DNA from: a virus
IMG/VR virus record: IMGVR_UViG_3300028549_000928
Coordinates: 1-37,473 of that record
Strand: one strand, 5' to 3'
DNA length: 37,473 nt
The position numbers and the translations under genes are program-made. Position 1 is the first letter of the stretch. Each line of letters starts with the position of its first letter. Shown here piece after piece: positions 10,514 through 37,473 of the stretch. Under the pieces are notes generated by a model. The model was not told the origin of the DNA and searched no databases. It worked only from the letters and a program-made list of their open reading frames with translations.

Positions 10514-10843
10514 TTAAAATTTCATTCCTTTACGTCTTAAATCTCTTTTTCTAAGAGTATATAATTGCTCTATTCTGCCAAGTCTGATATTCTCTTTGAT
10601 ACTTCTTTGAGCATCAATTCGTGCATAATGTGCAGGGTGGAAATCAAGTGAATCACCAATTCGCATTTCGTGTTGGTCGCAAAGATGATTGAAAATATCA
10701 TCCTCAAGGAATTGAACTTTTCTTTTAAAACTTTTTGTTTTGAATGTTGGAACTGCAATCACAATTTCTCGTGGTTTGTTTAACCAATTGAAAAATCCTT
10801 TTGTTAAATTTTGTTTGTTAGGAAATTTTATAATTTTTGCCAT
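10514..10843 (-). CDS. Hypothetical basic early protein (109 aa)
   Basis: Track ORF with AAAGGAG RBS upstream of the ATG at 10843. Confidence 0.65.
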   Translation of the reverse strand: MAKIIKFPNKQNLTKGFFNWLNKPREIVIAVPTFKTKSFKRKVQFLEDDIFNHLCDQHEMRIGDSLDFHPAHYARIDAQRSIKENIRLGRIEQLYTLRKRDLRRKGMKF

Positions 10844-25523: not shown

Positions 25524-27797
25524 ATGCAAGTACAAAGAGGTGATGATAGACAATATTTTGAAAGTTTTGAGCCTAAAAATGATGGTGGAGCAAATTTTAA
25601 TATTACGTCTCAGGCTTTAGGCTCAGGACTTGATATTGCTCAGCAAGCACAGAAAACAAAGCTTGCAAGCTTTCAGGTTGAGGCTAATACCAAAGCTATG
25701 AGATTAAGTGATGAAATAAATACAAAATATCAGGCTGACCCGACAAGCCAAGAAAGAGAGAAAGAATTCTCTGAAGGATTAAAGGGAATATTTGCAGGGT
25801 ATGAAGTGCCTCAAATCTCCAAAGGTGATTGGGATGGGATTACTCAGGGCATACAAAATAATTATAAAACATACAATGACGAATGGAGTATGAAACAACA
25901 AAAAACAAATACTCAAGTTGATTTAAAAAATACTTATTCTCAATTGATAAATAATGCAGCTGAATATGGGGCTAATGGTTCAGACTTGGGCAAGGTAAAA
26001 TTAGAATTTGCAAATGGACTTGATGCTTTAAAAAGTTCAGGAAATGCAGTTCTTGGCGAAGTTGTTACAGGCGAATATTTAAAAGATGCTACGCACGATT
26101 TTATGACCTCTTATGTTGCCGGTATAATTGATAAAAACCCTGCAATGGCACTTCATTTATTAAAAGATAAAGGTGTATTGGATGATATAGACAATCAAGA
26201 AACAATTGAAAAATTAAGACAATCTGCCGGCGTAAAAATGCAACAATTTAATCAAGATTTTGCGGTGCAAAAAGTCTCTGACCTTATAGTGCAAAAAGGC
26301 GATATGGGTATAAAAATAATGGAAGGAACATTGTCAACTGCAGAACTGCAACAAGTAACGCAAAATCTTAAACCAAATGAAAGAGATTTGATTTTTAAGA
26401 TGGCCGGATATGGAACTGGTCAAAAATTTAGTGTCGATAGAGAAACCGGAGAAATCCAATATCCCGAAGTAGAAGAACCGGCAACTGATGCAGATTATAA
26501 CGACCCTTACAATTTTCTTTCAGTTGGTGATAAAACGTGGACTTTTGTTGATGATAAAGGCAAAAGAAGAAATCCTAATGCAATTGAACAATCCGAAATG
26601 ACAACAGAATTATTTGTTGCCGGCTCAAGACTTCTCAACTCAGTAGATGGTGCAACACCTCAAGAAAGCTTACAAAAGGTTGCGGAGTATCAAAATACCT
26701 TAAATAAAGCAACTCTATTTGGACTTAATAAAGAAGATTATCAAAAGATGATGAATGATTTTGTTCTTCCGGCTACAAAAGGAGTACAAGCAGATGCGAA
26801 GAATTATAAGGCAGGCGGTGCTTGGTTTGGAACTGGAGATAAATATGGATATGATGCAATAAGCAATTTCTTTACTCCGGCAAAAGATGCAAAAGAGGGT
26901 GATATAAAAAATCTTTCAAGACAAGAACAACTTGCAGGGTCTTATTATTGGGCAGGACTTCAAAGACAGGCACAACAAAGGGGAATGTCTATTGAGGGTT
27001 TAAAAAAGATGAGCAAAGATGAGCAAAGAAAAATTTATCATCAAGAGGCTCAAAGAGCGATTGAACAAGCAAAATCAACAACTGATAGTCCTCAAACTTG
27101 GTTCAAGCAATTAGAGCCAAATTATGTTTATGGAATAAGTCAAATGTTGCCAAGCCATAACGCAGATAGTGTTATAAATAGAGTTTCTTCAAAGATTCTT
27201 GCATTGCCAAGTGGAGCGAGCAGAGAAGAAATTGACAAAATAGTTGAAAAAGAAATCGGCAATGAATACGCAACAATGAGACAACGAAATAGTAGTACCG
27301 TTAATACTGCATTGAGAACAAGTAAATATGATTATTTAATTCAAAAACACGCACAGAAAAATGGGGTTGATGCTGATTTTATAAGAACCATTATCAAGCA
27401 CGAATCTAATTTTAATGCTAATGCTCATTCTCCTGCCGGAGCAATGGGATTGATGCAATTAATGCCCTCTACTGCTGCCAGTATGGGAATAAGTAAACCA
27501 TTGAATCCTGAACAGAATGTAGATGCCGGAGTGAGGCTTATTACCTCTTTGCTTAAAAGTTATAACGGTGATAAACGATTGGCTCTAGCTGCTTACAATG
27601 CCGGCTCAGGTGCAGTAAAAAAATACAAAGGGATTCCTCCTTATGGAGAGACAAGAAATTATGTAAATAACATTATGGCCGATTATGAGGATTTGAAAAA
27701 ATCAAAGTACCTTCCGGCCGGTTCAACTTCAAAAAAAGTTGTTGCACAAAAAGGACAACCACAACAAGTAGGAAAATGGCAAGTAACAAGAATATAA
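25524..27797 (+). CDS. Internal virion protein with a C-terminal lytic transglycosylase (SLT) domain
   Basis: KHESNFNANAHSPAGAMGLMQLMPSTA ... AAYNAGSGAVKKY ... ETRNYV is a canonical SLT motif set. The candidate catalytic Glu is E627 (27402-27404). Confidence 0.85.
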   Translation: MQVQRGDDRQYFESFEPKNDGGANFNITSQALGSGLDIAQQAQKTKLASFQVEANTKAMRLSDEINTKYQADPTSQEREKEFSEGLKGIFAGYEVPQISKGDWDGITQGIQNNYKTYNDEWSMKQQKTNTQVDLKNTYSQLINNAAEYGANGSDLGKVKLEFANGLDALKSSGNAVLGEVVTGEYLKDATHDFMTSYVAGIIDKNPAMALHLLKDKGVLDDIDNQETIEKLRQSAGVKMQQFNQDFAVQKVSDLIVQKGDMGIKIMEGTLSTAELQQVTQNLKPNERDLIFKMAGYGTGQKFSVDRETGEIQYPEVEEPATDADYNDPYNFLSVGDKTWTFVDDKGKRRNPNAIEQSEMTTELFVAGSRLLNSVDGATPQESLQKVAEYQNTLNKATLFGLNKEDYQKMMNDFVLPATKGVQADAKNYKAGGAWFGTGDKYGYDAISNFFTPAKDAKEGDIKNLSRQEQLAGSYYWAGLQRQAQQRGMSIEGLKKMSKDEQRKIYHQEAQRAIEQAKSTTDSPQTWFKQLEPNYVYGISQMLPSHNADSVINRVSSKILALPSGASREEIDKIVEKEIGNEYATMRQRNSSTVNTALRTSKYDYLIQKHAQKNGVDADFIRTIIKHESNFNANAHSPAGAMGLMQLMPSTAASMGISKPLNPEQNVDAGVRLITSLLKSYNGDKRLALAAYNAGSGAVKKYKGIPPYGETRNYVNNIMADYEDLKKSKYLPAGSTSKKVVAQKGQPQQVGKWQVTRI

Positions 27798-27809: not shown

Positions 27810-30800
27810 GTGGCAAAATTTTTAATAAAATCCCCACAAGGGGTTCAATTCCAAATAGAAAGTGATGGTGATTCCGCACCTACTGAACAAGAATTGAATA
27901 AAATATATTCAAGTCAATTGAAAACCAACGGTGTTGAGTACAATCAACCTAGTAATCATAATGAATTGACTTCTTTTGCTAAAGAAAAAATTAAGGCGGA
28001 AGACCCTATTCGTGCTAAAAAGTGGGAAAGTATGGGTAAAATTTCACCTTTTCAAGCTGCTCAAGAAACAATTAAAAGTGAAGTGGGCGGATTCTTTAAA
28101 AGTTTTTCTGATAATTATATGAAAGCCGTTATGGAAGATTCTAAAATTAACGAAAAAAGACAAGGGGTTGATAGAAATAAACCTCACACACGCTATGAAA
28201 TAGCCGGAATAGATAGAGCCGGACAACCAATGTATAGAGAAATTGACTTGAGCAAAAAAATAGGATTTATGGAAGGACTGAGAAATGCCCTTGCTTATAA
28301 TATGCCTTTTATCGGACAAGCTGCAAAAGGGTTGGATGATAAAAAAGAAAGAGAAATTGTTAAAAAAATCAAAAATAACGAAAACGTCGGAGATGATGAA
28401 GTTAAATTTTTGAACCATAGAATTGATAAACGCAAGGAATATATCATGCGTGGTGTCGGTATTGACGGACAAATTGGTGAAGGATTGGCTGAAACTGCAA
28501 GACTAGGTGGTGAATTATATTTTGGCGGTACTGTGTTTAAAGCATTGGGTGGTGCAAAATTAGCCGGTGCGATTCCATCAAAAGCCGGACAATGGGCGGT
28601 TAATACTTTGGGCGGTGGTGCAGTAGCAACACTTGCGAATCCGCAAAGCATCTACGCAAATTTTCAGGAAAGAATGTTGAATAATGAAATGAAAATTACA
28701 GATTTAGGAAAAGTGGTTTTTAAGGATTCAGAAGAAAAGCCGGCTACTGCATTTTATAAATCTTTGTTTGGTGCATTTTTAAGTAATGCAACTGAAATTG
28801 GCGGCGGTCAATTGTTAGATTCAACCTTTGGACTTACCGGAAAAGTTGCAAGTAATTTAATGAAAAAGAATCCGGCATTGAAAAAACTTATTGAAAAATC
28901 TTCAACTCAATTTGCTAAATATTATGAGAAGGTCAATAATCTTCCGGTAGTCGGAAAGAGTGCGGATTGGCTTTCCAAAAGAGTACACTTTGACGGATTG
29001 CTTGAAGAAATGGGAGAGGAAAGTTTAGAAGACATTTTGCATTTAACTTTTGGAATCAATAATGAAGATAGAAGTTTAGAAAATTATACAAAAGCAGCTT
29101 TTAAATCTCCGGAAGAATGGGCTGTTATTGCAGGAACAATTGCAATGTACGGCGGTGGTGTGTCTATGACAAGCCATCTTTTGAATGCAAGACTTCAAGA
29201 AACAAATTTGAATCAAGAACAAATTGACGAGATTTTACATACTTCATCAGAATCTGAGAAGGTCGATTTGCTTGAAGATATGATTCAAACAAACGGTGTA
29301 ACAATTAAAGGTAGTATAGAATACAACGCTTTAAGGCATCAATTAGTTAGTGCCGGCAGAACAGATGAACAAGCTGAAACTGAAATTCAAGCGTTAAATA
29401 GGATTGATAAAGTTCTTTTGGATAAATACAATCAAGATGGCGAGGCTGAGACATTAATTAAAAAAAGAAATTTAAAGGCCTTGAGTATAAATAATAAAAT
29501 CCAACAAAAGCGTGAAGAAAATTTTGTTAGTGAAAATATGGGCGGACGTGAACGTCAAACATTTAGACCGGAAGAATTAAATACTGATGCTAAAGCTTTT
29601 CAATATAAAGAAAATTCTGATAGTGAAGGTGTCACCGATAGATTAGAAGGGATTGAGGAATTTGACCCTTTATTTGCCGGAGATGTTATTGTTTATGAAA
29701 CAAAAGATGGAGAAAAATATATTGCAGACGGACATCAACGGCTTGGGCTTGCTAAAAGACTTGAAGACCCGAATATTAAATTAAGCGGTTATGTCTTCAA
29801 GGAATCTGATGGATTCACTCCGGAGAAAGTAAGAGTTCTTGCAGCACAAAAAAACATTGCGGAAGGTTCAGGAACTGCGATTGATACCGCTAAAATCATA
29901 AAAGAAATAGGAGTTGAAAACATTCCTAAGTCTTTACCAAAGAATTCCGCATTGGTGAGAAATGGAATTTCACTTGCACGTTTTGGAGATGAGGCTTTTC
30001 AAAAAGTTATCAATGGTGATGTTACTCCTCAACAAGGTGCGGTGATAGCTGACGTTATAAGAAATGATGAAGTTAAGCAATCCGTTTGTATTGATGGAGT
30101 TAAAAAGGCAAGATTTGAGAATCTTGAGCAAGTCGCATTATTTGCTCAGGAGGTTTTGAGTGCCGATACAACGCAAAGTGAGCAGACAAATTTATTCGGA
30201 ACTGAAACAATTTTTGAGACCACGGCGATCGAAAAAATACAAATTGTTGACAGAGCAACAAAATTATTAAAACAAGATAAAAAAATCTTTACCGGATTAT
30301 TGAGAAATAAAGCAAAGATTGAAAGTATAGGAGAAAACGAACTTGATTCAAAAACGAATGAAGAGGTCAAACTTGATGCAGATAAAGCAATTACAATTAT
30401 ACAAAAATTGTCTTGTATGCGTGGAGAAATATCAGATAAAGCCAATAAACTTGCCAAAGAATATAAAGATGGAAAAATAACTTTTAATCACGCAGTTATG
30501 CAATTTAGAGACTATGCACAATCAAAGGAAGTCTTGGAAAGTATCTTTGGCCAAAAAACCCAAGAAAACAATCTTGGTAAAGAAATTGAATCACAAGAAG
30601 TTAAAACTGTGCAAGAAATTGAGCAGGATGAGGATTTGGAGAGTGATGGGATTGATGAGGCTCTTGGATTAAAAAAACTCCCCTTAAAAGGTTTTGAAAA
30701 AGAATCTGAAAAAACCGCAAAAAAAGAACAAGATGAAATTTCAAAAAAAGAATCACGTGAAAAAAACTCAACAACTGCAGATGGATTTCAAAATGCTATG

Positions 30801-33713
30801 TTTAATATTGAACAGTTTAAAGATGGTCAATCAATGCTTTTTGATACTTCTGATATGAAGAATGCCGTCTCTTATTCTCAATCAAGTAAAGACGAATTCA
30901 AGGAAGATTCCAGAGCCTTTATTCAATTCAGAAATGATGAAACCATTATAGGACTTCTTGAAGGCCATGACGCTTCGTCCGTAGTACACGAATTAGCACA
31001 CCTTTACTTGCACGACATACAAGAACTCGCAAAAACAAACAAACGTGCAGCCAAGGACTTACAGGAGGTCTATGAATGGCTTGGTAGAGACTTACATAAA
31101 GAATATACAGAAGATGAAGAAAGAGAGTTACACGAGAAGTTTGCACGAGGCTTTGAGGGCTATTTGATGAATGGTCAAGCACCTACGCAACGTATGCAAA
31201 CACTTTTTGATAAATTTAAAATATTTTTAGAAGATGTTTATAAGCATTTTGAAGAGTTGGGAATAGATTTTTCAGAAGATGTTAAACGTGGATTTGATAG
31301 ACTTTTTACAACTGATGAAGAATACGAAAAAGAAGTTTTACCAATGTATGAGCAGAATTATGAGATGTTGAGTAGTCTTCGGCCGTCTTTTTGGGAATCC
31401 ATCCGGAATAATACAAAGAATAATGTTCAAGCAATAAGCCATTGGTGGGATGCCTTGGCGATTCCTATTGATACACGTCTTGGTAAAATTGACCCTAAAT
31501 TGAAAAACATTATTAAAAAACATACTTTCGATATTATGAATATTAACGCAAAGGATGCCAAGGCAATGACACCCTTTCTTGAAACTGCTCAGAAAATGCA
31601 AAGAGAAAACGAAAAGGATTTTAAAATTCTTGACCTTGCATTAAAAAATCGTGATACTTACATGACAAATAAGATTCTTAAAAAATATAATTTATCAAAA
31701 GATTTTGAGGCCGTAAAAGATATTTTGGATAGTATCTATAATGAATCAGTAGAAGTCGGTCTTGATTTGGGTTATCTTGAAAATTATTTCCCACGTTTAA
31801 TTGATAATAATAAATCTGAACAATTCCTTGATTATTTTGAAAAAATGGCACTACAAGAAGAGATTGACATAAGAAATCAGATTATCGACTTCGAAGAGGC
31901 ACAATATTCGAATGCCATAAAATCATTGAGAGATGCAGACCCTGATGGTTTATGGTCAAGAGAAGACAAGGCAAAATTTTTAAATACTCTCATTAGAGGC
32001 TTTGGGAAAAATAATATTATGCTTTCAAGAATAGGGCAATTGAAATTTGAAAGACAAATTGATAAATTAACTCCGGAACTCAACGCTTTTTATAAATCGT
32101 TTACTGAGGCTTTGGCATATTATATTCCTTCTGCTCGTAAGAACATTGAGGAAAGAAAATTCTTTGGTGGTGAAAATAAAGAAGTAGGAAAGCTTAGAGG
32201 CACAATAAAACAAAAACGCACAACCCTAAAAGAGGTCAAGGAAAGAACTCCAAGCCAAGCAAAATTCAAAGAGGCTACAAGATTAAAGTACGAATTATCA
32301 AGTGTTGTTATCAGGCACGAAAACGCTCTTAGGTCTTATAGTAATGGAATTATTGCATCTGAAAATACTCAAAAAAGATTCAGCGGAGTAAAGGATGAGT
32401 ATGTTCCAAACTTGGAAGAAATGAAAGCTAATATTGACAAGCTAGGAGAGCAAAGAAAGCACCTTGAAGAACAGATTGAATACATAGAAGGTGAAAATCC
32501 TCTTACTGTTAAAAATATTGTAATGAGAAGATTGACAGAAGATATAAAAAAAGCGAATGAACAAATAGGACTAATTATCGGTGATGAAAAAAATATTGAA
32601 AATAGTATTGGTGCTTTAGTGTCTTCACTTGTTTTCAATGGCGATATTTATGCAAAAGATGAAAAAATAATCAGAGACCTTTTAGTTGCTAGATTTAGCA
32701 ATGCAAAAGTCAATGGTGCAACCGCCTTTATCCGTGATGTTGGTTATATTGGAACTTTAAATGATATTACAAATGCTGTAACTCAATTTGGAGACCTTGC
32801 TTTTTCTGCTTATAAATTCGGCTTATTTGATACAATCGCCGGAGCAAGAAAAGTTGAAGGATTGACCCGTAAAGATTTAGGATTATCAACGATTGCGGAA
32901 GAATTTCAGAATCCGGAAGGAACGGCAAAAGCAGTTAATAATATCTTAAAATGGATTGGGCTTGAGGCAATTGACGGATTCGGCAAAAATACGGTTATCA
33001 ATGCCTCTGTAAATAAAGCAAGAAGACTTGCAAAAAAGGATGATAAAAAATTAAATGAAAAATTGAAATTTATGTTCGGTGATGAGGCAAAACAAGTCAA
33101 GCAAGATTTGATTGATGGTAATATTACGGACGGAGTTTTATTTATTGCTTATAGTGACCTTTCAGATATTCAACCTATATCAATTGACCAAATGACAGAA
33201 ATTTATTCAAAAGGTGGAGTATATAGATTGTTTTATATGCTAAAAACTTATTCAATAAAAGCGGTTGATATTGTTAGAAATGATTGTTTTATGAAAATAT
33301 CAGAAGGAACAAAAACAAAAAATAAATCACTTATTGGTGAAGGTTTAATGAACTTGGCCAGACTTCAATTTTTTATGCTTATGTTTGGGATTCCAAAAGA
33401 TATGTTGGTTGATTTTATTTTAAATAGAGAATTCAACCTCCCTGAAAGTGTCATGGATAATTTGATTACTTCTTTGATATTTAACAGATTCGTAAAAAGA
33501 ACTTTTGAAAAAGAAGGTCTTGGAAGTGCCACATTAAACTATGCAATACCACCATTTTTCAGAATGCTTGACACTTGGACTAAAGACACTATGTCGGTTG
33601 TTCAAGGCAAAAAAGATATTAAAGATGCTTATGGATGGGCTTACATTCCATTCGCAGGAAAGCTTTACTACAATTGGCTTGGTGGGTCTAAGCATAAGAG
33701 AGTTGAACAATAA
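27810..33713 (+). CDS. Giant (1967 aa) internal virion / ejected polyvalent protein with a ParB/Srx-like motif and an HExxH zincin motif
   Basis: GTG start after an AAAGGAAA RBS. Contains GDVIVYETKDGEKYIADGHQRLGLAKRL (DGHQR at 29727-29741) and SSVVHELAHLYLHD (HELAH at 30987-31001), followed by ELHEKFARGFEGYLMNG. Position matches T7 gp16-class proteins. Confidence 0.8.
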   Translation: MAKFLIKSPQGVQFQIESDGDSAPTEQELNKIYSSQLKTNGVEYNQPSNHNELTSFAKEKIKAEDPIRAKKWESMGKISPFQAAQETIKSEVGGFFKSFSDNYMKAVMEDSKINEKRQGVDRNKPHTRYEIAGIDRAGQPMYREIDLSKKIGFMEGLRNALAYNMPFIGQAAKGLDDKKEREIVKKIKNNENVGDDEVKFLNHRIDKRKEYIMRGVGIDGQIGEGLAETARLGGELYFGGTVFKALGGAKLAGAIPSKAGQWAVNTLGGGAVATLANPQSIYANFQERMLNNEMKITDLGKVVFKDSEEKPATAFYKSLFGAFLSNATEIGGGQLLDSTFGLTGKVASNLMKKNPALKKLIEKSSTQFAKYYEKVNNLPVVGKSADWLSKRVHFDGLLEEMGEESLEDILHLTFGINNEDRSLENYTKAAFKSPEEWAVIAGTIAMYGGGVSMTSHLLNARLQETNLNQEQIDEILHTSSESEKVDLLEDMIQTNGVTIKGSIEYNALRHQLVSAGRTDEQAETEIQALNRIDKVLLDKYNQDGEAETLIKKRNLKALSINNKIQQKREENFVSENMGGRERQTFRPEELNTDAKAFQYKENSDSEGVTDRLEGIEEFDPLFAGDVIVYETKDGEKYIADGHQRLGLAKRLEDPNIKLSGYVFKESDGFTPEKVRVLAAQKNIAEGSGTAIDTAKIIKEIGVENIPKSLPKNSALVRNGISLARFGDEAFQKVINGDVTPQQGAVIADVIRNDEVKQSVCIDGVKKARFENLEQVALFAQEVLSADTTQSEQTNLFGTETIFETTAIEKIQIVDRATKLLKQDKKIFTGLLRNKAKIESIGENELDSKTNEEVKLDADKAITIIQKLSCMRGEISDKANKLAKEYKDGKITFNHAVMQFRDYAQSKEVLESIFGQKTQENNLGKEIESQEVKTVQEIEQDEDLESDGIDEALGLKKLPLKGFEKESEKTAKKEQDEISKKESREKNSTTADGFQNAMFNIEQFKDGQSMLFDTSDMKNAVSYSQSSKDEFKEDSRAFIQFRNDETIIGLLEGHDASSVVHELAHLYLHDIQELAKTNKRAAKDLQEVYEWLGRDLHKEYTEDEERELHEKFARGFEGYLMNGQAPTQRMQTLFDKFKIFLEDVYKHFEELGIDFSEDVKRGFDRLFTTDEEYEKEVLPMYEQNYEMLSSLRPSFWESIRNNTKNNVQAISHWWDALAIPIDTRLGKIDPKLKNIIKKHTFDIMNINAKDAKAMTPFLETAQKMQRENEKDFKILDLALKNRDTYMTNKILKKYNLSKDFEAVKDILDSIYNESVEVGLDLGYLENYFPRLIDNNKSEQFLDYFEKMALQEEIDIRNQIIDFEEAQYSNAIKSLRDADPDGLWSREDKAKFLNTLIRGFGKNNIMLSRIGQLKFERQIDKLTPELNAFYKSFTEALAYYIPSARKNIEERKFFGGENKEVGKLRGTIKQKRTTLKEVKERTPSQAKFKEATRLKYELSSVVIRHENALRSYSNGIIASENTQKRFSGVKDEYVPNLEEMKANIDKLGEQRKHLEEQIEYIEGENPLTVKNIVMRRLTEDIKKANEQIGLIIGDEKNIENSIGALVSSLVFNGDIYAKDEKIIRDLLVARFSNAKVNGATAFIRDVGYIGTLNDITNAVTQFGDLAFSAYKFGLFDTIAGARKVEGLTRKDLGLSTIAEEFQNPEGTAKAVNNILKWIGLEAIDGFGKNTVINASVNKARRLAKKDDKKLNEKLKFMFGDEAKQVKQDLIDGNITDGVLFIAYSDLSDIQPISIDQMTEIYSKGGVYRLFYMLKTYSIKAVDIVRNDCFMKISEGTKTKNKSLIGEGLMNLARLQFFMLMFGIPKDMLVDFILNREFNLPESVMDNLITSLIFNRFVKRTFEKEGLGSATLNYAIPPFFRMLDTWTKDTMSVVQGKKDIKDAYGWAYIPFAGKLYYNWLGGSKHKRVEQ

Positions 33714-33728
33714 CAGAAGGAGATTAAA

Positions 33729-35903
33729 ATGACAAATACAGTAGCTTACGCACCAAAAAAGCAAAACGGAAATGGAGTGACAAAAGATGTTTCGTTTGCT
33801 TGGAAAATATTTAAAGAAACTGATTTAATAATAATAATTGAAAATGATATTACTAAAGTCCAAAGAACGCTTGAGTTGGGAACTGATTATTCTGTTACTT
33901 TTAGCGGTGGAACTGGGGGTAATGTTTCATTAGTTGTTGCACCTCCTACCGGAGAAACAATTATTGTAACTAGAAATACACCTCAAGAACAAGGTTCATC
34001 TTATTTAACCTCGCCCGGATTTGATGCAAAAGAAGTTGAAAAATCACTTGATAGAGCAAGCGTTATTGTTCAAGATGTAAATTATTCGCTGAAACGTGCA
34101 ATAAAAGTTCCAATAGGTTCAGAAGCTTTAAATTTAAGCTTGCCTGCCCCGAATGCCGGTAAAACTCTTAAATGGAATGAGACTGAGGACGGCTTGGTTA
34201 ATTCAGATGTTAATGTTGATGATATTGATACTGCGGTACAAGAGGCTAAAGACTATGCAGATGCTGCAATAAATTCTGCAAATAGTGCAACGGCATCTGC
34301 TGCAAGTGCTGCATCTGGAATTGCAGTTTTTAATACAACCTACGAGGGTGCTTTGCAAGACTTGGTGGATGGAAAAGAAGAGATTGAAACTCAGGCTATT
34401 TTATCCTTGAATCAGTTAAGAGATGCAGGGTACGGTTTACCTCCGTCTATCTGCAAAAACCTTATGATTAAAAAAGTTGGGGTTAATGTTTCTTTAAAAT
34501 GGGAAGATAGTGGAAACACAATTCTTGATGAAAAATATATCTGCACATGGGCAGGAACAAAAATTGTCAAAAGGCTCGGTGGCTATCCTAGAAATGAAAC
34601 TGACGGAGTTTTGGTTGTTGATAATTTAATAAACAACCAGTATCTAAATTCTGCATATATTGATGTCTTGGCTGATTCAGGTGAGAATTGGTATTATGCT
34701 GCATTCCCTTATTCAACAAATGGGGCATATTGTTATAATGCAAAGAATAACTTCACAGAGGCGATTGTTTATGAATTTTGTATCAATCCTAATGATGCAA
34801 ACCCTATCACGAGGGTAACTCGTCCTGTTGATTCTGTAAACAAGGACTTTGTACATGCGTATATGAATTTTGGCAGCGGTGCATTTAATTATGGAAGTTG
34901 GGAACACGCTTTCTTTATGCCTCGCCCTGTAATGGTCAAGTATGATGGAACGGTTGACTATGAACTTTATAAGCAAAATTTCAATTACAAAGCTGACGGT
35001 GTTACTCCAAGCGGTATTGCTAATACGGCTTATGGCGGTAATGTTATGATTGCATTCCCTCAAGTTTGGTTTAAATTTGTTATGGATGGAACTCTTCAGC
35101 ACGTTTATATTGCTAACAAGCAAGTTGATGAAAATTATAAGTGCTATACTCACTACAATAGGCTTGGAACATTGCTTAATGAAATATTTATAAATGCTTA
35201 TCAACCTTGTAATGTTTCATCAAAATTGAGAAGTCTTTCAGGACAAACAATTTATGTAGGGGCTGCAGGAACAACTGAAATTGCTTATGCTCAAGCAAAT
35301 GGTGATGGTTGGTATTTGTGGGATTATGCTTTCTTTAATATGATGAATATGTTGCTTGTTTTAATGTGTGGGTCAACAAATATTCAATCAAAATTTGGTG
35401 AAGGTCGCTCAAGTGCTGCGAATGCAACAACCGGAGAATGCAACGACAAAGGAATGTTTTACGGCACAAGTGCAAATGGGGCAGTAAAAATATTTGGTAT
35501 CGAAAATTATTATGGGAATTATTGGAAAAGGACAGCCGGTTGCGTTTATACTGCAGCAGGGATGAAATATAAAATGACTGAATCAACTCTTGACGGCTCA
35601 ACTGTTGTTGGGTATAACACGGACGGTACAGGCTATTTGACACATCAAGCATTTAGCGGAACAACTGGCGGATATATCTCAGCAGCTTCATTGACTGCAA
35701 ACGGAATATTCCCAACTGTCGCAAGTGGTTCAAGTTCAACTTACTTCTCAGATGGTCTTTGGTGGGCTGCAGGTGGTTACGCTATTGTCGGCGGTGATTA
35801 TGCCGACGGTGCTCTTGCCGGTTCGTTCTGTCTGTTTCTGAGCGATGCCGTGTCGACTGCCGGCGCTAACATCGGGGCTTCGCTTTCGTGTAAGCCTCTT
35901 TAA
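33729..35903 (+). CDS. Tail fibre / receptor-binding protein: T7-tail-fibre-like N-terminal adaptor domain and a C-terminal DGR variable region (C-type-lectin-fold candidate)
   Basis: The N-terminus (VSFAWKIFKETDLIIIIEND...LELGTDYSVTF...IIVTRNTPQEQ...LDRASVIVQDV) matches the Phage_T7_tail pattern. The C-terminus GGYAIVGGDYADGALAGSFCLFLSDAVSTAGANIGASLSC carries the VR. Confidence 0.9.
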   Translation: MTNTVAYAPKKQNGNGVTKDVSFAWKIFKETDLIIIIENDITKVQRTLELGTDYSVTFSGGTGGNVSLVVAPPTGETIIVTRNTPQEQGSSYLTSPGFDAKEVEKSLDRASVIVQDVNYSLKRAIKVPIGSEALNLSLPAPNAGKTLKWNETEDGLVNSDVNVDDIDTAVQEAKDYADAAINSANSATASAASAASGIAVFNTTYEGALQDLVDGKEEIETQAILSLNQLRDAGYGLPPSICKNLMIKKVGVNVSLKWEDSGNTILDEKYICTWAGTKIVKRLGGYPRNETDGVLVVDNLINNQYLNSAYIDVLADSGENWYYAAFPYSTNGAYCYNAKNNFTEAIVYEFCINPNDANPITRVTRPVDSVNKDFVHAYMNFGSGAFNYGSWEHAFFMPRPVMVKYDGTVDYELYKQNFNYKADGVTPSGIANTAYGGNVMIAFPQVWFKFVMDGTLQHVYIANKQVDENYKCYTHYNRLGTLLNEIFINAYQPCNVSSKLRSLSGQTIYVGAAGTTEIAYAQANGDGWYLWDYAFFNMMNMLLVLMCGSTNIQSKFGEGRSSAANATTGECNDKGMFYGTSANGAVKIFGIENYYGNYWKRTAGCVYTAAGMKYKMTESTLDGSTVVGYNTDGTGYLTHQAFSGTTGGYISAASLTANGIFPTVASGSSSTYFSDGLWWAAGGYAIVGGDYADGALAGSFCLFLSDAVSTAGANIGASLSCKPL
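35780..35887 (+). repeat. DGR variable repeat (VR), inside the last 41 codons of the tail-fibre gene
   Basis: Gap-free 108-bp alignment to 35968-35075+1000 (that is, 35968-36075) with 96/108 identity. All 12 differences lie opposite TR adenines. Confidence 0.93.
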
Positions 35904-35909
35904 GGGGGA

Positions 35910-35927
35910 GTGGGGGGTTTCCCCCAC
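35910..35927 (+). promoter_or_regulatory. GC-rich hairpin downstream of the VR (DGR target-recognition element candidate)
   Basis: GTGGGGG-GTTT-CCCCCAC: a 7-bp stem and 4-nt loop, 22 nt after the VR end and 6 nt after the stop codon. No U-run follows, so it is not a typical intrinsic terminator. Confidence 0.7.
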
Positions 35928-35967
35928 AAAGCAAAAATTGAATAAATAGGGATATTGAATACGCTCT

Positions 35968-36075
35968 CGCTATTGTCGGCGGTAATTATGACAACGGTGC
36001 TCTTGACGGTTCGTTCTGTCTGAATCTGAACAATGCCGTGTCGAATGCCAACGCTAACATCGGGGCTTCGCATTC
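35968..36075 (+). repeat. DGR template repeat (TR)
   Basis: Contains 22 adenines, 12 of which are substituted in the VR. Read in the VR frame it has 8 AAY codons and ends in TAA. Located 132 bp upstream of the RT start. Confidence 0.93.
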
Positions 36076-36207
36076 TTAAACATTGTCTTTGAAAAATTTC
36101 TTAATGTACTCAATATTCCTTGCCACTTGGCAAAAATTAACCGAATAAGAGGTGCGTGCTAGTAGCTTGTTGAACGCTCGCAAGGTGTTTAAGAAAGAAT
36201 ATAATAA

Positions 36208-37356
36208 ATGAAGTCATATAACCATCTTTTTGAAAAGTTGGTGAGTAGTGAGAATATAAGTCTTGCAATCACCAACGCTTCAAGAAGAAAAAGCAAAAGA
36301 AAAGATGTTCGTTACATCTTGGAACACAGAGAAGAATTTACAAAGAAAATACAAGATTTACTTATAAGTCAAGAATTTAAACCACAAAAACACAGGCTCG
36401 TAAAAATCTATGATAAAAGTTCTAAAAAAGAGAGATACATCATTCAACCTTATTTCCGCATCAATAAGCAGGGAGAGGAAGTCTTTGAACAAATAATCCA
36501 TCACGCTGTTATTCAGGTGTTAAGCCCTGTTTTTATGCGTGGAATGTATAAATACTCTTGCGGTTCAATTCCTAAGCGTGGAGGGCATTATGGCAAGAAG
36601 TATCTTGAAAAATATATCAAAGAACATGATGAGAATGAGATAAAATATTGCTGCAAGTTTGACATTCGACACTATTATTTGACGGTCAACGTGCCCTTGC
36701 TGAAAGAAAAGTTTAAGGTAAAAATACACGATGAGAAAATGCTTAAAATCATTTTTGCAATTCTTGATAGTAATATCGCAATGAATAACGGAAAGCTTTT
36801 TGACATGGGCTTGCCTATCGGTTTTTATACTTCGCAATGGTTTGCAAATTGGTTTCTTGAAGATTTCGATCACTTCATAAAAGAGGAATTAAAAATCAAA
36901 TGCTTTGTTCGCTATATTGATGATGTGATTTTATTTAGCCCTAATAAAAGGGATTTGCACAAAAAGCTGAAACGGATTAACAATTTTCTAAAAAATATTA
37001 AACTGGAACTTAAAAAGAATTATCAAGTTTTTAAATTTGACTACGGAAACAATAAAGGTCGCCCACTCGATTTTATGGGCTTCAAATTTTATAGAAACCG
37101 TACAACGCTGAGAAAATCAATTCTCCACAATGCGGTTAAGAAGGCAAGGAAAATTCAAAAGAAAACAACTCCAACTCATTATGATGCAAGTCAAATACTC
37201 AGTTATTTGGGTTGGTTTAAAAGTACAAAAACGTTTGAGTTTTTCAAGCGTACAGTTGCACAAATGATTAATTTAAGAGCGTGTAAGTTACTGATAAGTA
37301 GAAAAAGTAAAGGAGAAACAAATGATATTGAATTGGGAAGTTGCGGAAAGCACTGA
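36208..37356 (+). CDS. DGR-type reverse transcriptase (382 aa)
   Basis: Motifs in order: KKERYIIQPYF...QIIHHAVIQVL, SIPKRGGHYG, KFDIRHYYLTV, LPIGFYTSQWFANWFL (the IGxxxSQ hallmark of DGR RTs), YIDD (36913-36924) and FMGFKFY. The 3' end is duplicated at 1-138 by the assembly overlap. Confidence 0.92.
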   Translation: MKSYNHLFEKLVSSENISLAITNASRRKSKRKDVRYILEHREEFTKKIQDLLISQEFKPQKHRLVKIYDKSSKKERYIIQPYFRINKQGEEVFEQIIHHAVIQVLSPVFMRGMYKYSCGSIPKRGGHYGKKYLEKYIKEHDENEIKYCCKFDIRHYYLTVNVPLLKEKFKVKIHDEKMLKIIFAILDSNIAMNNGKLFDMGLPIGFYTSQWFANWFLEDFDHFIKEELKIKCFVRYIDDVILFSPNKRDLHKKLKRINNFLKNIKLELKKNYQVFKFDYGNNKGRPLDFMGFKFYRNRTTLRKSILHNAVKKARKIQKKTTPTHYDASQILSYLGWFKSTKTFEFFKRTVAQMINLRACKLLISRKSKGETNDIELGSCGKH

Positions 37357-37473
37357 AAGACCTCTTGAGGTTGATAATATGCTCTCCCCTAGTGGGGTAT
37401 ATCTGAGAAAAGATGTACAGGAAGTCGAAGGAAAATTTCAATATAAAGAAGTTTTTCTAGGGCAAGAATACAA
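37219..37473. repeat. Second copy of the 255-bp terminal overlap (contains the RT 3' end and the 5' part of ORF 104-622)
   Basis: Identical to 1-255 by direct reading. Confidence 0.95.

Follow-up and report, generated by a model that had tools for sequence, protein, structure and literature searches.

The mechanistic prototype of the DGRs, the mtd-avd-TR-brt cassette of the Bordetella phages BPP-1 and BIP-1, encodes the protein Avd, which in BPP-1 binds a stem-loop of the RNA, Sp 3-33. A large class of cassettes has no such helper. Accessory-free TR-RT cassettes (Architecture A) made up 75 of 372 DGRs in the survey of Wu et al. (2018; PMC5758913), in which Lineage 3 is without avd and avd is also absent elsewhere in the genomes that carry such cassettes. 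Similarly, the DGR of crAssphage LMMB has been published as a Lineage 3 element with the order TG-VR-TR-RT and without avd (PMC7290462). In Architecture E, a different small protein, CH1 (160–169 aa, pI 4.7), is present, and it occurs only in avd-less DGRs (Wu et al., 2018; PMC5758913). At the RNA level, RT motifs have been proposed to serve DGRs (Weinberg et al., 2017; PMC5737381). The question of how about one DGR in four functions without Avd dates from 2017; no experiments on any avd-less DGR were found in the searched literature, and no reconstitution of an avd-less element is apparent to date.

The locus described here, in the IMG/VR virus record IMGVR_UViG_3300028549_000928, is a complete DGR without accessory genes; its "target-TR-RT" order is that of Architecture A1 (Wu et al., 2018). 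The window, that is, the whole stretch of 37,473 nt that was analyzed, has redundant ends (bases 1–255 equal 37219–37473); the assembly is thus circular or terminally redundant, with a unit of 37,218 bp, and the ORF at 104–622 therefore adjoins the RT gene directly downstream. The genome (~37.2 kb) is that of a temperate, podovirus-like phage with a serine integrase, a T7-type portal and internal virion proteins. Target, TR and RT follow one another on one strand, and an accessory gene lies neither between nor beside them, the acidic ORF downstream being assigned to the fibre (see below). The features of the cassette are as follows.

33729–35903, + strand: DGR target gene, a 724-aa tail-fibre/tail protein with the VR at its extreme C-terminus.
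35780–35887, + strand: variable repeat (VR), a 108-nt ungapped match to the TR.
35910–35927, + strand: GC-rich hairpin (GTGGGGG / GTTT loop / CCCCCAC), read from the sequence, 6 nt past the target stop codon.
35949–35962, + strand: 5' arm of a long-range helix that brackets the TR (GGGAUAUUGAAUAC), with 13 of 14 pairs formed with 36106–36119.
35968–36075, + strand: template repeat (TR), with 22 adenines; the same sequence is found in a second assembly of the phage.
36076–36105, + strand: A/U-rich unstructured linker from the TR to the 3' arm (MFE 0.0 kcal/mol, GC 0.17).
36106–36119, + strand: 3' arm of the TR-bracketing helix (GUACUCAAUAUUCC), from covariation and the MFE fold.
36121–36196, + strand: structured RNA, Rfam RF03021 RT-18, separated by 11 nt from the RT start codon.
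36208–37356, + strand: DGR reverse transcriptase, 382 aa, pI 9.9 (RVT_1, 3.2e-14; phrog_1423, 3.8e-93).
104–622 (end copy from 37322 onward), + strand: acidic 172-aa ORF, pI 4.6; its first 35 nt overlap the end of the RT gene.

The coordinates given in the initial annotation are correct, and its distances of 64 bp from the target stop codon to the TR and of 132 bp from the TR to the RT are exact. It had added that neither gap has room for an ORF. Neither does hold a protein ORF, but the 132-bp gap is filled by structured RNA, namely RT-18 of Rfam and the 3' arm of the covarying 14-bp TR-bracketing helix. The layout had also been considered mechanistically unusual, which is not supported: the helper-free arrangement is not new but a common, already described class, published for crAss-like phages as well as in the survey cited above, and the window is another member of it. 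Isolated relatives have it too: LBR48, Arawn, Epona, cr55_1 and LMMB show the order fibre-gap-RT with no Avd annotated. The locus itself is not unusual and of modest interest.

In the target protein, residues 343–723 match phrog_5302 "tail protein" (6.5e-66) and residues 10–129 match tail-fibre families (both in PHROGs). The C-terminal ~170 aa are conserved among related DGR targets, and a profile of this domain gave no match among PDB sequences. The VR ends 16 nt before the stop codon of the target, and all 12 of its mismatches to the TR are at TR adenines, with no other VR/TR drift. More generally, at least 80% of the mismatches fall on TR adenines in 40 of the 55 related loci with a repeat pair. 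Similar GC-rich inverted repeats occur in related loci at the position of the hairpin, which may have a function in VR replacement. A VR/TR pattern of this kind could record past activity only, in a recently inactivated relic. The VR is identical in the other assemblies of the same phage (three assemblies, one VR allele), and decayed cassettes do occur among relatives, with a TR and a 55-aa RT remnant in locus L121 and interrupted RTs in L067–L071. However, a relic is unlikely in this case, since the RT ORF is uninterrupted and keeps its catalytic motifs, the TR, the RT-18 RNA and the bracketing helix are all intact as well, and the repeats differ at adenines and nowhere else.

When the RT was compared with solved structures, the best match was the Bordetella bRT (8ub7, E 1.3e-16). 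The motifs LPIGFYTSQ and YIDD align with IPIGSLTSQ and YMDD of bRT ([LIV]GxxxSQ and YxDD types). With 382 aa the enzyme had been called short, which it is not for a DGR, the Bordetella RT having 328 aa, 54 fewer. It shares 33% identity (165 bits) with the RT of crAssphage LMMB, its nearest published Lineage-3 match, and 23% (86 bits) with that of BIP-1. In a crude NJ tree without bootstraps, the clade of the window RT is nearer to the crAss-containing branch than to hankyphage p00; inside the crAss branch of this tree, bRT and VP58.5, which are Avd-type RTs, join the crAss/Perkons RTs. The window RT is placed outside the crAss group, on a separate branch together with IMG/VR loci and the RTs of LBR48, Arawn and Epona. 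This crude tree, together with the BLAST ranks, suggests that the window RT may be nearer to the avd-less Lineage-3 RTs than to the Avd-dependent ones.

The proposal that the phage has no Avd or HRDC gene is supported by Pfam profile searches of 79 ORFs in six frames, run with positive controls. Neither Avd (PF05635, PF22296) nor HRDC had a match at E≤1 in the 47 gene-like ORFs, or in 32 further overlapping or antisense ORFs of at least 56 aa, and no MutS-like family appeared in the Pfam results for the window ORFs. The same Avd search returned the Avd of BIP-1 at 7e-36 and gp19 of Vibrio phage VP58.5 at 6e-28. Two small ORFs were tried as Avd candidates and rejected. The first, of 108 aa at 732–1058, has 2 homologues only and no Pfam or PDB sequence match; its AF2 model is all-helical but of low confidence (pLDDT 62), with a best Foldseek E of 2.3. 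The second, a basic ORF of 109 aa (10514–10843, pI 10.3), has one homologue and no PDB match. It is the sole unannotated basic ORF of Avd size in the window. The structure-based screen covered two window ORFs, those of 172 and 108 aa, which had been singled out as the only ones tightly linked to the RT. The start of 104–622 does overlap the RT stop, but the 172-aa protein behaves as a partner of the fibre and the 108-aa protein is an orphan.

The RNA of the whole region does not fold more stably than shuffled sequence (z = −0.53); the claims made here about RNA are thus based on covariation and the Rfam score instead of folding energy. RT-18 in the window scores 50.0 bits against a gathering score of 41.3 (E 5.5e-8) and covers model positions 1–84 of 84. 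It is above the gathering score at the same position in 19 related loci, most of which score higher than the 50 bits of the window copy (range 45–63 bits). The TR-bracketing helix covaries among 21 distinct related loci, with 90.5% of cells paired and 3–6 standard pair types at positions 4–14. Across 22 loci, cognate arms form on average 12.6 of 14 pairs, vs. 9.3 ± 1.5 for non-cognate arms. In addition, the helix is found in both the MFE and the centroid folds.

Directly 3' of the TR, at the position where the Avd-binding stem-loop lies in BPP-1, the 30-nt segment of the window forms no stem-loop. The corresponding linker is at most 30 nt long and folds at −0.3 kcal/mol or weaker in 17 of 21–22 related loci, in 15 of them at exactly 0.0; three longer related linkers fold at −6 to −14. 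These data bear on the idea that an Avd-like or other protein cofactor acts in trans, encoded by the host chromosome or by a phage ORF diverged beyond recognition. Avd is essential in BPP-1 and Avd sequences are very poorly conserved; moreover, structural models cover two window ORFs, and the Avd search was one of phage ORFs. Nevertheless, both Pfam models of Avd were blank at E≤1 while their controls scored strongly, genomes with avd-less cassettes lack avd elsewhere (Wu et al., 2018), the Avd-binding position of the RNA is without a stem-loop here and in most relatives, and the only Avd-sized candidate ORF (10514–10843) has a single homologue and no PDB match. A cofactor in trans is thus rather unlikely.

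The acidic 172-aa ORF calls for a separate discussion. By description only, it fits CH1 in size, charge and position. Members of its family follow the RT, mostly overlapping its stop, in 50 of 55 RT-seeded loci, and an RT is located upstream in all 19 loci seeded on the acidic family, plus 3 look-ups. The overlap of its start with the RT stop in most relatives would also suit a partner of the RT. The protein could accordingly be read as a dedicated DGR accessory that replaces Avd, CH1-like, and that binds RT or RNA for cDNA synthesis or homing. The scans with single acidic proteins are not an independent test of RT dependence, as they gave close relatives only, all with an RT; the effective seeding was on the C-terminal domain of the fibre. 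Among the 69 informative loci obtained in this way, 55 have both RT and acidic ORF, and in 13 without an intact RT the acidic ORF still follows the fibre gene. Twelve of these 13 loci, from at least six lineages, have a gap of −19 to 123 nt between the fibre gene and the acidic ORF, with no trace of RT or TR, and the family member is intact in each. The thirteenth is the decayed DGR of L121, where the gap is 490 nt.

Structure prediction points in the same direction. The AF2 model of the acidic protein (pLDDT 91.4) is not a helical bundle, and Foldseek aligned it with DUF4376 phage proteins (probability 1.0, E 2e-5) at a moderate TM of 0.45–0.66. DUF4376 phage proteins have been shown experimentally to be tail-fibre chaperones. 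One member of the acidic family (L047) matches PF16778 Phage_tail_APC at 3.7e-20. By other routes the protein is poorly connected: the model had no Foldseek match in the PDB, the family profile gave nothing below E 0.2 among PDB sequences, Pfam DUF4376 did not match the window protein, Pfam yielded no consistent family over 34 members, and a tblastn search of 50,697 phage genomes with the 172-aa ORF gave no match. Likewise, the ORFs that follow the RT in LBR48, Arawn, Epona and the window showed no mutual similarity when compared in pairs by BLAST; the link within the family appeared only via intermediate metagenomic members, and gp02 of LBR48 lies outside it. Within the family, the N-terminus is conserved and the C-terminus variable.

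Judged from the predicted fold and the gene neighborhoods, the acidic ORF probably encodes the assembly chaperone of the fibre and not a component of the DGR, the TR-RT module having probably been inserted between the fibre gene and the chaperone gene. A dedicated accessory is very unlikely in view of the RT-less loci and of this fold; the family also shows no profile similarity to the CH1-like family of hankyphage (hhalign probability <1%), which itself belongs to DUF4376 and follows fibre homologues in RT-less Bacteroidales loci. The acidic protein might instead be bifunctional: a fibre chaperone, translationally coupled to the RT, with a second role in the DGR. This role could lie, for example, in holding the basic RT (pI 9.9) or regulating it, or else in linking fibre production with the homing of the cDNA. 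If so, it would represent a non-Avd class of cofactor, shared by convergence with the "CH1" gene of hankyphage, but we give this dual role very little credence. Of the three possibilities raised in the initial annotation (no factor, an unrelated factor or a host factor), the second loses its best candidates, because the acidic ORF behaves as a fibre partner and the 108-aa ORF is an orphan. Judged from sequence, operation without an accessory factor, possibly with a host factor, becomes the leading reading.

A mechanism for an element without Avd can then be outlined. The TR, the helix, RT-18 and the RT mRNA would be part of one transcript, and the RT would bind the RT-18/helix scaffold directly, this scaffold doing the positioning job that Avd and RNA do in BPP-1. 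The RT would self-prime adenine-mutagenic cDNA synthesis across the TR without Avd; we infer that RT and RNA suffice for this step, although a host factor other than Avd may contribute. The cDNA would replace the VR at the 3' end of the tail-fibre gene, guided by the GC-rich 3' end shared by VR and TR and by the GC hairpin past the stop codon, and the receptor-binding C-terminal domain of the fibre would be diversified as a result. As a whole explanation, this Avd-less mechanism, with the acidic ORF as a fibre chaperone, is likely.

The value of this phage is that of a compact and fully delimited test case, made up of a 382-aa RT and some 270 nt of RNA. The defined elements of this RNA are the TR-bracketing helix, RT-18 and, in the place of the Avd-binding stem-loop, an unstructured linker. 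A two-component DGR, if true, would make targeted mutagenesis simpler than it is with the bRT-Avd pair used in E. coli. More broadly, the acidic ORFs that flank avd-less RTs, likely "CH1" included, look like tail-fibre chaperones and are therefore no longer first-choice candidates for a cofactor. This points to insertion of TR-RT modules at the junction of fibre and chaperone genes.

The known systems resemble the window in different parts. The DUF4376/Tfa-type chaperones (gp27 of Alteromonas phage V22, gp9 of A5, Campylobacter CJIE1 and TfaMu) are small and adjoin a fibre gene, like the 172-aa ORF. However, the acidic gene of the window is parted from its fibre gene by the 1.4-kb TR-RT insertion, and the published Tfa pattern, with a conserved C-terminus, is the reverse of that of the acidic family.

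The hankyphage (Bacteroides phage p00) has the same order of target, gap and RT, followed by an acidic 161-aa ORF that overlaps the RT stop and that, from the published description, would correspond to the CH1 of Wu et al. (2018). Pfam assigns the hankyphage ORF to DUF4376, the group that the 172-aa protein resembles in predicted fold, and its CH1-like family follows fibre homologues in RT-less loci, as the window family does. In contrast, the two acidic families show no similarity (hhalign probability 0.2–0.4%; hmmsearch E 0.08), the RNA motif of hankyphage is RT-3, and the RTs share only ~24% identity.

Like the window, the prototype BPP-1/BIP-1 has adenine-specific VR/TR differences, a tail-fibre target whose VR is C-terminal, and a GC hairpin that follows this repeat. 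The ~13-bp "cPRT Stop" duplex of BPP-1, formed from sequences upstream and downstream of the TR, is paralleled by the bracketing helix. The Bordetella phages differ in carrying an Avd gene and an Avd-binding stem-loop 3' of the TR, of which the window has neither, and the RNA at the equivalent place in BIP-1 is Rfam Phage_DGR (/RT-10), vs. RT-18 in the window. As described, RF03021 RT-18 is without assigned function (Weinberg et al., 2017). The window copy is like it in being a full-length match directly upstream of an RT gene; here it lies between the TR and a DGR RT and is preceded by the TR-bracketing helix. Finally, the members of Architecture A1/Lineage 3, such as LMMB, are like the window in gene order on one strand, in having no avd, HRDC or MutS-like gene, in being without non-adenine substitutions, and in having a single tail-fibre target with the VR at its extreme C-terminus.

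Bases 1-255 of the window recur exactly at 37219-37473, a 255-bp terminal direct repeat that marks the assembly as circular or terminally redundant, with a genome of 37,218 bp. Genes at the two ends of the window are therefore neighbours, and ORF 104-622 lies just after the reverse transcriptase (RT) gene. The window holds a complete target/variable repeat (VR)/template repeat (TR)/RT set of a diversity-generating retroelement (DGR):

Components of the DGR cassette
33729-35903: target gene, 724 aa, terminating in the VR
35780-35887: VR, 108 nt, at the end of the 724-aa gene
35968-36075: TR, ungapped match to the VR
36208-37356: RT, 382 aa (RVT_1; phrog_1423, 3.8e-93)

All 12 VR/TR mismatches fall at TR adenines, affecting 12 of the 22 adenines in our own count of the TR, and the VR does not differ between three assemblies of this phage. 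The gaps given in the initial annotation (64 bp from target stop to TR, 132 bp from TR to RT) are exact. Its remark that the RT is short points to no meaningful oddity, since the Bordetella DGR RT (bRT; 8ub7, E 1.3e-16), the best relative of solved structure, has only 328 residues; the motifs LPIGFYTSQ and YIDD align to IPIGSLTSQ and YMDD of bRT. Independent assemblies, including a Logan contig (L258, SRR21758068) and many IMG/VR contigs (L076-L092), tend to break off within the RT/TR region or a short way upstream of it, presumably because assemblers are confused by the VR/TR repeat or by VR heterogeneity; such breaks could hint at population diversity in the VR.

The initial annotation had also reported no Avd or HRDC accessory gene, and this was borne out. 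A Pfam scan at E<=1 of 47 gene-like ORFs and 32 overlapping or antisense ORFs of at least 56 aa returned no match to the Avd families PF22296 (bAvd-like) and PF05635, nor to HRDC or MutS-like domains, across these 79 ORFs. The positive controls were strong: 7e-36 for the Avd of Bordetella phage BIP-1, and 6e-28 on PF22296 and 1.8e-5 on PF05635 for gp19 of Vibrio phage VP58.5. Only one unannotated ORF is both basic and as large as an Avd (10514-10843, 109 aa, pI 10.3); a search of 5.8 billion proteins gave a single homologue, and a PDB sequence search gave no match. As far as profile searches can see, Avd and HRDC thus appear to be absent from the window.

This absence had been considered mechanistically interesting; the avd-less character stands, and the novelty does not, as the class has been published. 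Architecture A, TR-RT with no accessory gene, accounts for 75 of 372 DGRs, and Lineage 3 DGRs lack avd, with none found by profile searches elsewhere in those genomes, for which an Avd-independent mechanism was suggested (Wu et al., 2018; PMC5758913). Similarly, crAssphage LMMB has a TG-VR-TR-RT order without avd and an RT assigned to Lineage 3 (Morozova et al., 2020; PMC7290462). The closest isolate RTs are those of Lactobacillus phage LBR48 (39.9%), Butyrivibrio phages Arawn/Idris (38.9%) and Faecalibacterium phage Epona (35.2%), followed by crAss-like phages, LMMB included (31-34%); Avd-type RTs are far lower (VP58.5, 28%; BIP-1, 23%). In a crude NJ tree, the window RT falls in one clade with these Firmicutes-type phages, crAss RTs occupy a neighbouring branch together with the Avd-type RTs bRT and VP58.5, and the RT of the Bacteroides hankyphage (p00) is outermost. 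The annotated loci of Arawn, Epona, cr55_1, LMMB and LBR48 (where the target falls outside the record, before its start) consist of a tail gene, a gap of 140-450 nt and an RT, without Avd. This layout is common to 58 IMG/VR loci found with the window RT. A repeat pair is present in 55 loci (isolates and window counted), 40 of which place 80% or more of their mismatches at TR adenines. The avd-less architecture of the window is therefore already known. Nine related loci (L006-L008, L016, L017, L020, L022, L023, L028) have larger target-to-RT gaps (460-660 nt) containing tandem near-repeats of ~145 nt (300 nt in L022), which differ mostly at positions other than adenines and may be duplicated TR regions or RNA elements.

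Two RT-linked ORFs had been singled out as candidate partners. The 108-aa ORF 732-1058 has two homologues, no Pfam or PDB sequence match, and an all-helical, low-confidence predicted model (pLDDT 62), for which the best Foldseek match has E 2.3. Its lack of conservation within the RT clade disfavours a role in the DGR. Beyond it, a 150-aa DUF1353 protein (1068-1520; PF07087, 9e-11) has a further match to phrog_1158, 'tail assembly chaperone' (5e-15), making it a second chaperone-like gene between the DGR and the lysis genes.

The first such gene would be the acidic ORF 104-622. In 50 of 55 RT-seeded loci, an ORF starting at the RT stop or at most 92 nt before it joins a single BLAST cluster of proteins of 81-195 aa and pI 4.1-5.7, with ~65 conserved N-terminal residues and variable C-termini; a profile search retrieved 222 relatives, none with a Pfam domain. 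The RT is upstream in all contexts seeded on this family, which is not an independent test because the loci are close relatives. Seeding on the conserved fibre C-terminal domain (alignment A4) was a better test: 55 of the 69 informative loci have RT and acidic ORF, 13 have the acidic ORF without an intact RT, and one has neither. Twelve of the 13 RT-less loci, from at least six lineages, contain no TR and no trace of RT, and the gap from the fibre gene to the start of their intact acidic ORF is -19 to 123 nt; in the thirteenth (L121), a decayed DGR, a TR and 55 aa of the RT survive. The acidic ORF thus travels with the fibre and not with the RT. Its AF2 model (pLDDT 91.4) has an N-terminal beta-sheet plus helices and no helical bundle; it has no match in the PDB, and against BFVD, which collects predicted structures of viral proteins, it hits phage proteins of the DUF4376 family (probability 1.0, E from 2e-5, TM 0.45-0.66). 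DUF4376 proteins encoded after fibre genes are tail-fibre chaperones by experiment (V22 gp27, A5 gp9), as is the TfaMu-related DUF4376 protein of Campylobacter CJIE1. One family member (L047) combines the conserved N-terminal domain with Pfam Phage_tail_APC (3.7e-20). ORF 104-622 is therefore probably the assembly chaperone of the fibre, with TR-RT inserted between the fibre and chaperone genes, an arrangement that may be general. In the Avd-containing DGR of VP58.5, a small ORF overlapping the RT stop (gp21, L174:3450-3794) ends in a tail-fibre-assembly-like motif read by eye (…WRDKVAEIKARYPLP), with no Pfam match. In five contigs encoding protein P0036 (L067-L071), the acidic ORF is preceded by an RT in pieces, for which no gene is called (in L071, residues ~112-279 and 284-372 are separated by about 216 nt); this RT is either frameshifted or decaying, or carries an insertion.

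An acidic accessory gene, CH1 (160-169 aa, pI 4.7+/-0.2, no motifs), has been proposed for avd-less DGRs, confined to Bacteroides and relatives (Wu et al., 2018; PMC5758913). Hankyphage encodes a 161-aa ORF of pI 4.7 overlapping the RT stop (L175:3802-4287). Relatives of 151-165 aa and pI 4.89+/-0.22 are present in 80 genomes of Bacteroidales, among them Phocaeicola plebeius DSM 17135, and 71 of the 78 informative loci have an RT directly before the ORF. From the published description, we infer that this family is CH1. The hankyphage ORF matches Pfam DUF4376 above threshold (26.1 vs 25 bits), and three of five RT-less Bacteroidales loci have a fibre homologue whose end lies 1-157 nt upstream of the acidic ORF. 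If the family is CH1, CH1 is probably also a fibre chaperone rather than a DGR cofactor. The window family has no profile similarity to it (hhalign probability <1%), which makes the window ORF an analogue of CH1 and not a member.

The closest cellular context of the window's acidic ORF (57% identity) and RT (45%) is a prophage in a Candidatus Gastranaerophilales MAG (L072, GCA_028693235.1), and the host may be a gut melainabacterium. This prophage has an adjoining 2714-aa ART-PolyVal/LPD3 protein, comparable to the giant 1967-aa window ORF (27810-33713, no Pfam match). Together with a 757-aa protein whose C-terminus is an SLT transglycosylase (25524-27797), a T7-type portal (PF12236) and a T7 gp13-like protein, this giant ORF suggests a podovirus with ejected internal virion proteins; the window encodes a serine integrase as well.

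The 132-bp gap before the RT, described earlier as too short for an ORF, is occupied by a structured RNA:

RNA elements around the TR
35949-35962: 5' arm of helix, GGGAUAUUGAAUAC, 5 nt upstream of the TR; pairs with 36106-36119
36076-36105: linker equivalent to the Avd-binding segment, 30 nt, 17% GC, no predicted structure
36106-36119: 3' arm of helix, GUACUCAAUAUUCC, directly 5' of RT-18
36121-36196: RT-18 RNA (Rfam RF03021), full-model match, 50 bits vs gathering score 41.3

RT-18 is one of the motifs (RT-1 to RT-19) found near RT genes (Weinberg et al., 2017). It occupies the same position in 19 related loci, LBR48 included, where about 10 nt separate its end from the RT start; in other DGRs this spot holds RT-4 in Epona, RT-3 in hankyphage and the Rfam Phage_DGR family in BIP-1. 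Pairing of 35949-35962 with 36106-36119 places the TR in a closed loop. This helix is present in both MFE and centroid folds and covaries: 90.5% of cells pair in 21 distinct loci, with 3-6 standard pair types at each of positions 4-14. Cognate arms average 12.6 of 14 pairs in 22 loci, versus 9.3+/-1.5 for non-cognate arms given equal register freedom, of which only 1.7% attain the cognate mean. In overall folding energy the region does not surpass shuffled sequence (z = -0.53). The RNA scaffold of the cassette is conserved.

The RT would bind RT-18 and the helix directly and self-prime adenine-mutagenic cDNA synthesis, and the cDNA would home to the VR via the shared GC-rich 3' end and a hairpin at 35910-35927. 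A contribution from a non-Avd host factor is conceivable; the literature searched reports no reconstitution of an avd-less DGR. The locus offers a clean, minimal system for studying how Avd-independent mutagenic retrohoming works; its RNA anatomy and the new assignment of the acidic genes beside avd-less RTs add useful, if incremental, knowledge.

The cryo-EM structure of BPP-1 shows a 'cPRT Stop' duplex between sequences on either side of the TR, averaging 13 bp over 207 Avd-containing DGRs, and, just 3' of the TR, a stem-loop (Sp 3-33) to which the Avd pentamer binds. Unlike BPP-1, the window RNA lacks the Avd-binding element, the equivalent linker in 17 of 22 relatives also being at most 30 nt and folding at -0.3 kcal/mol or weaker, which fits a real absence of Avd; like BPP-1, it has a TR-closing duplex and an RT-proximal structured element.
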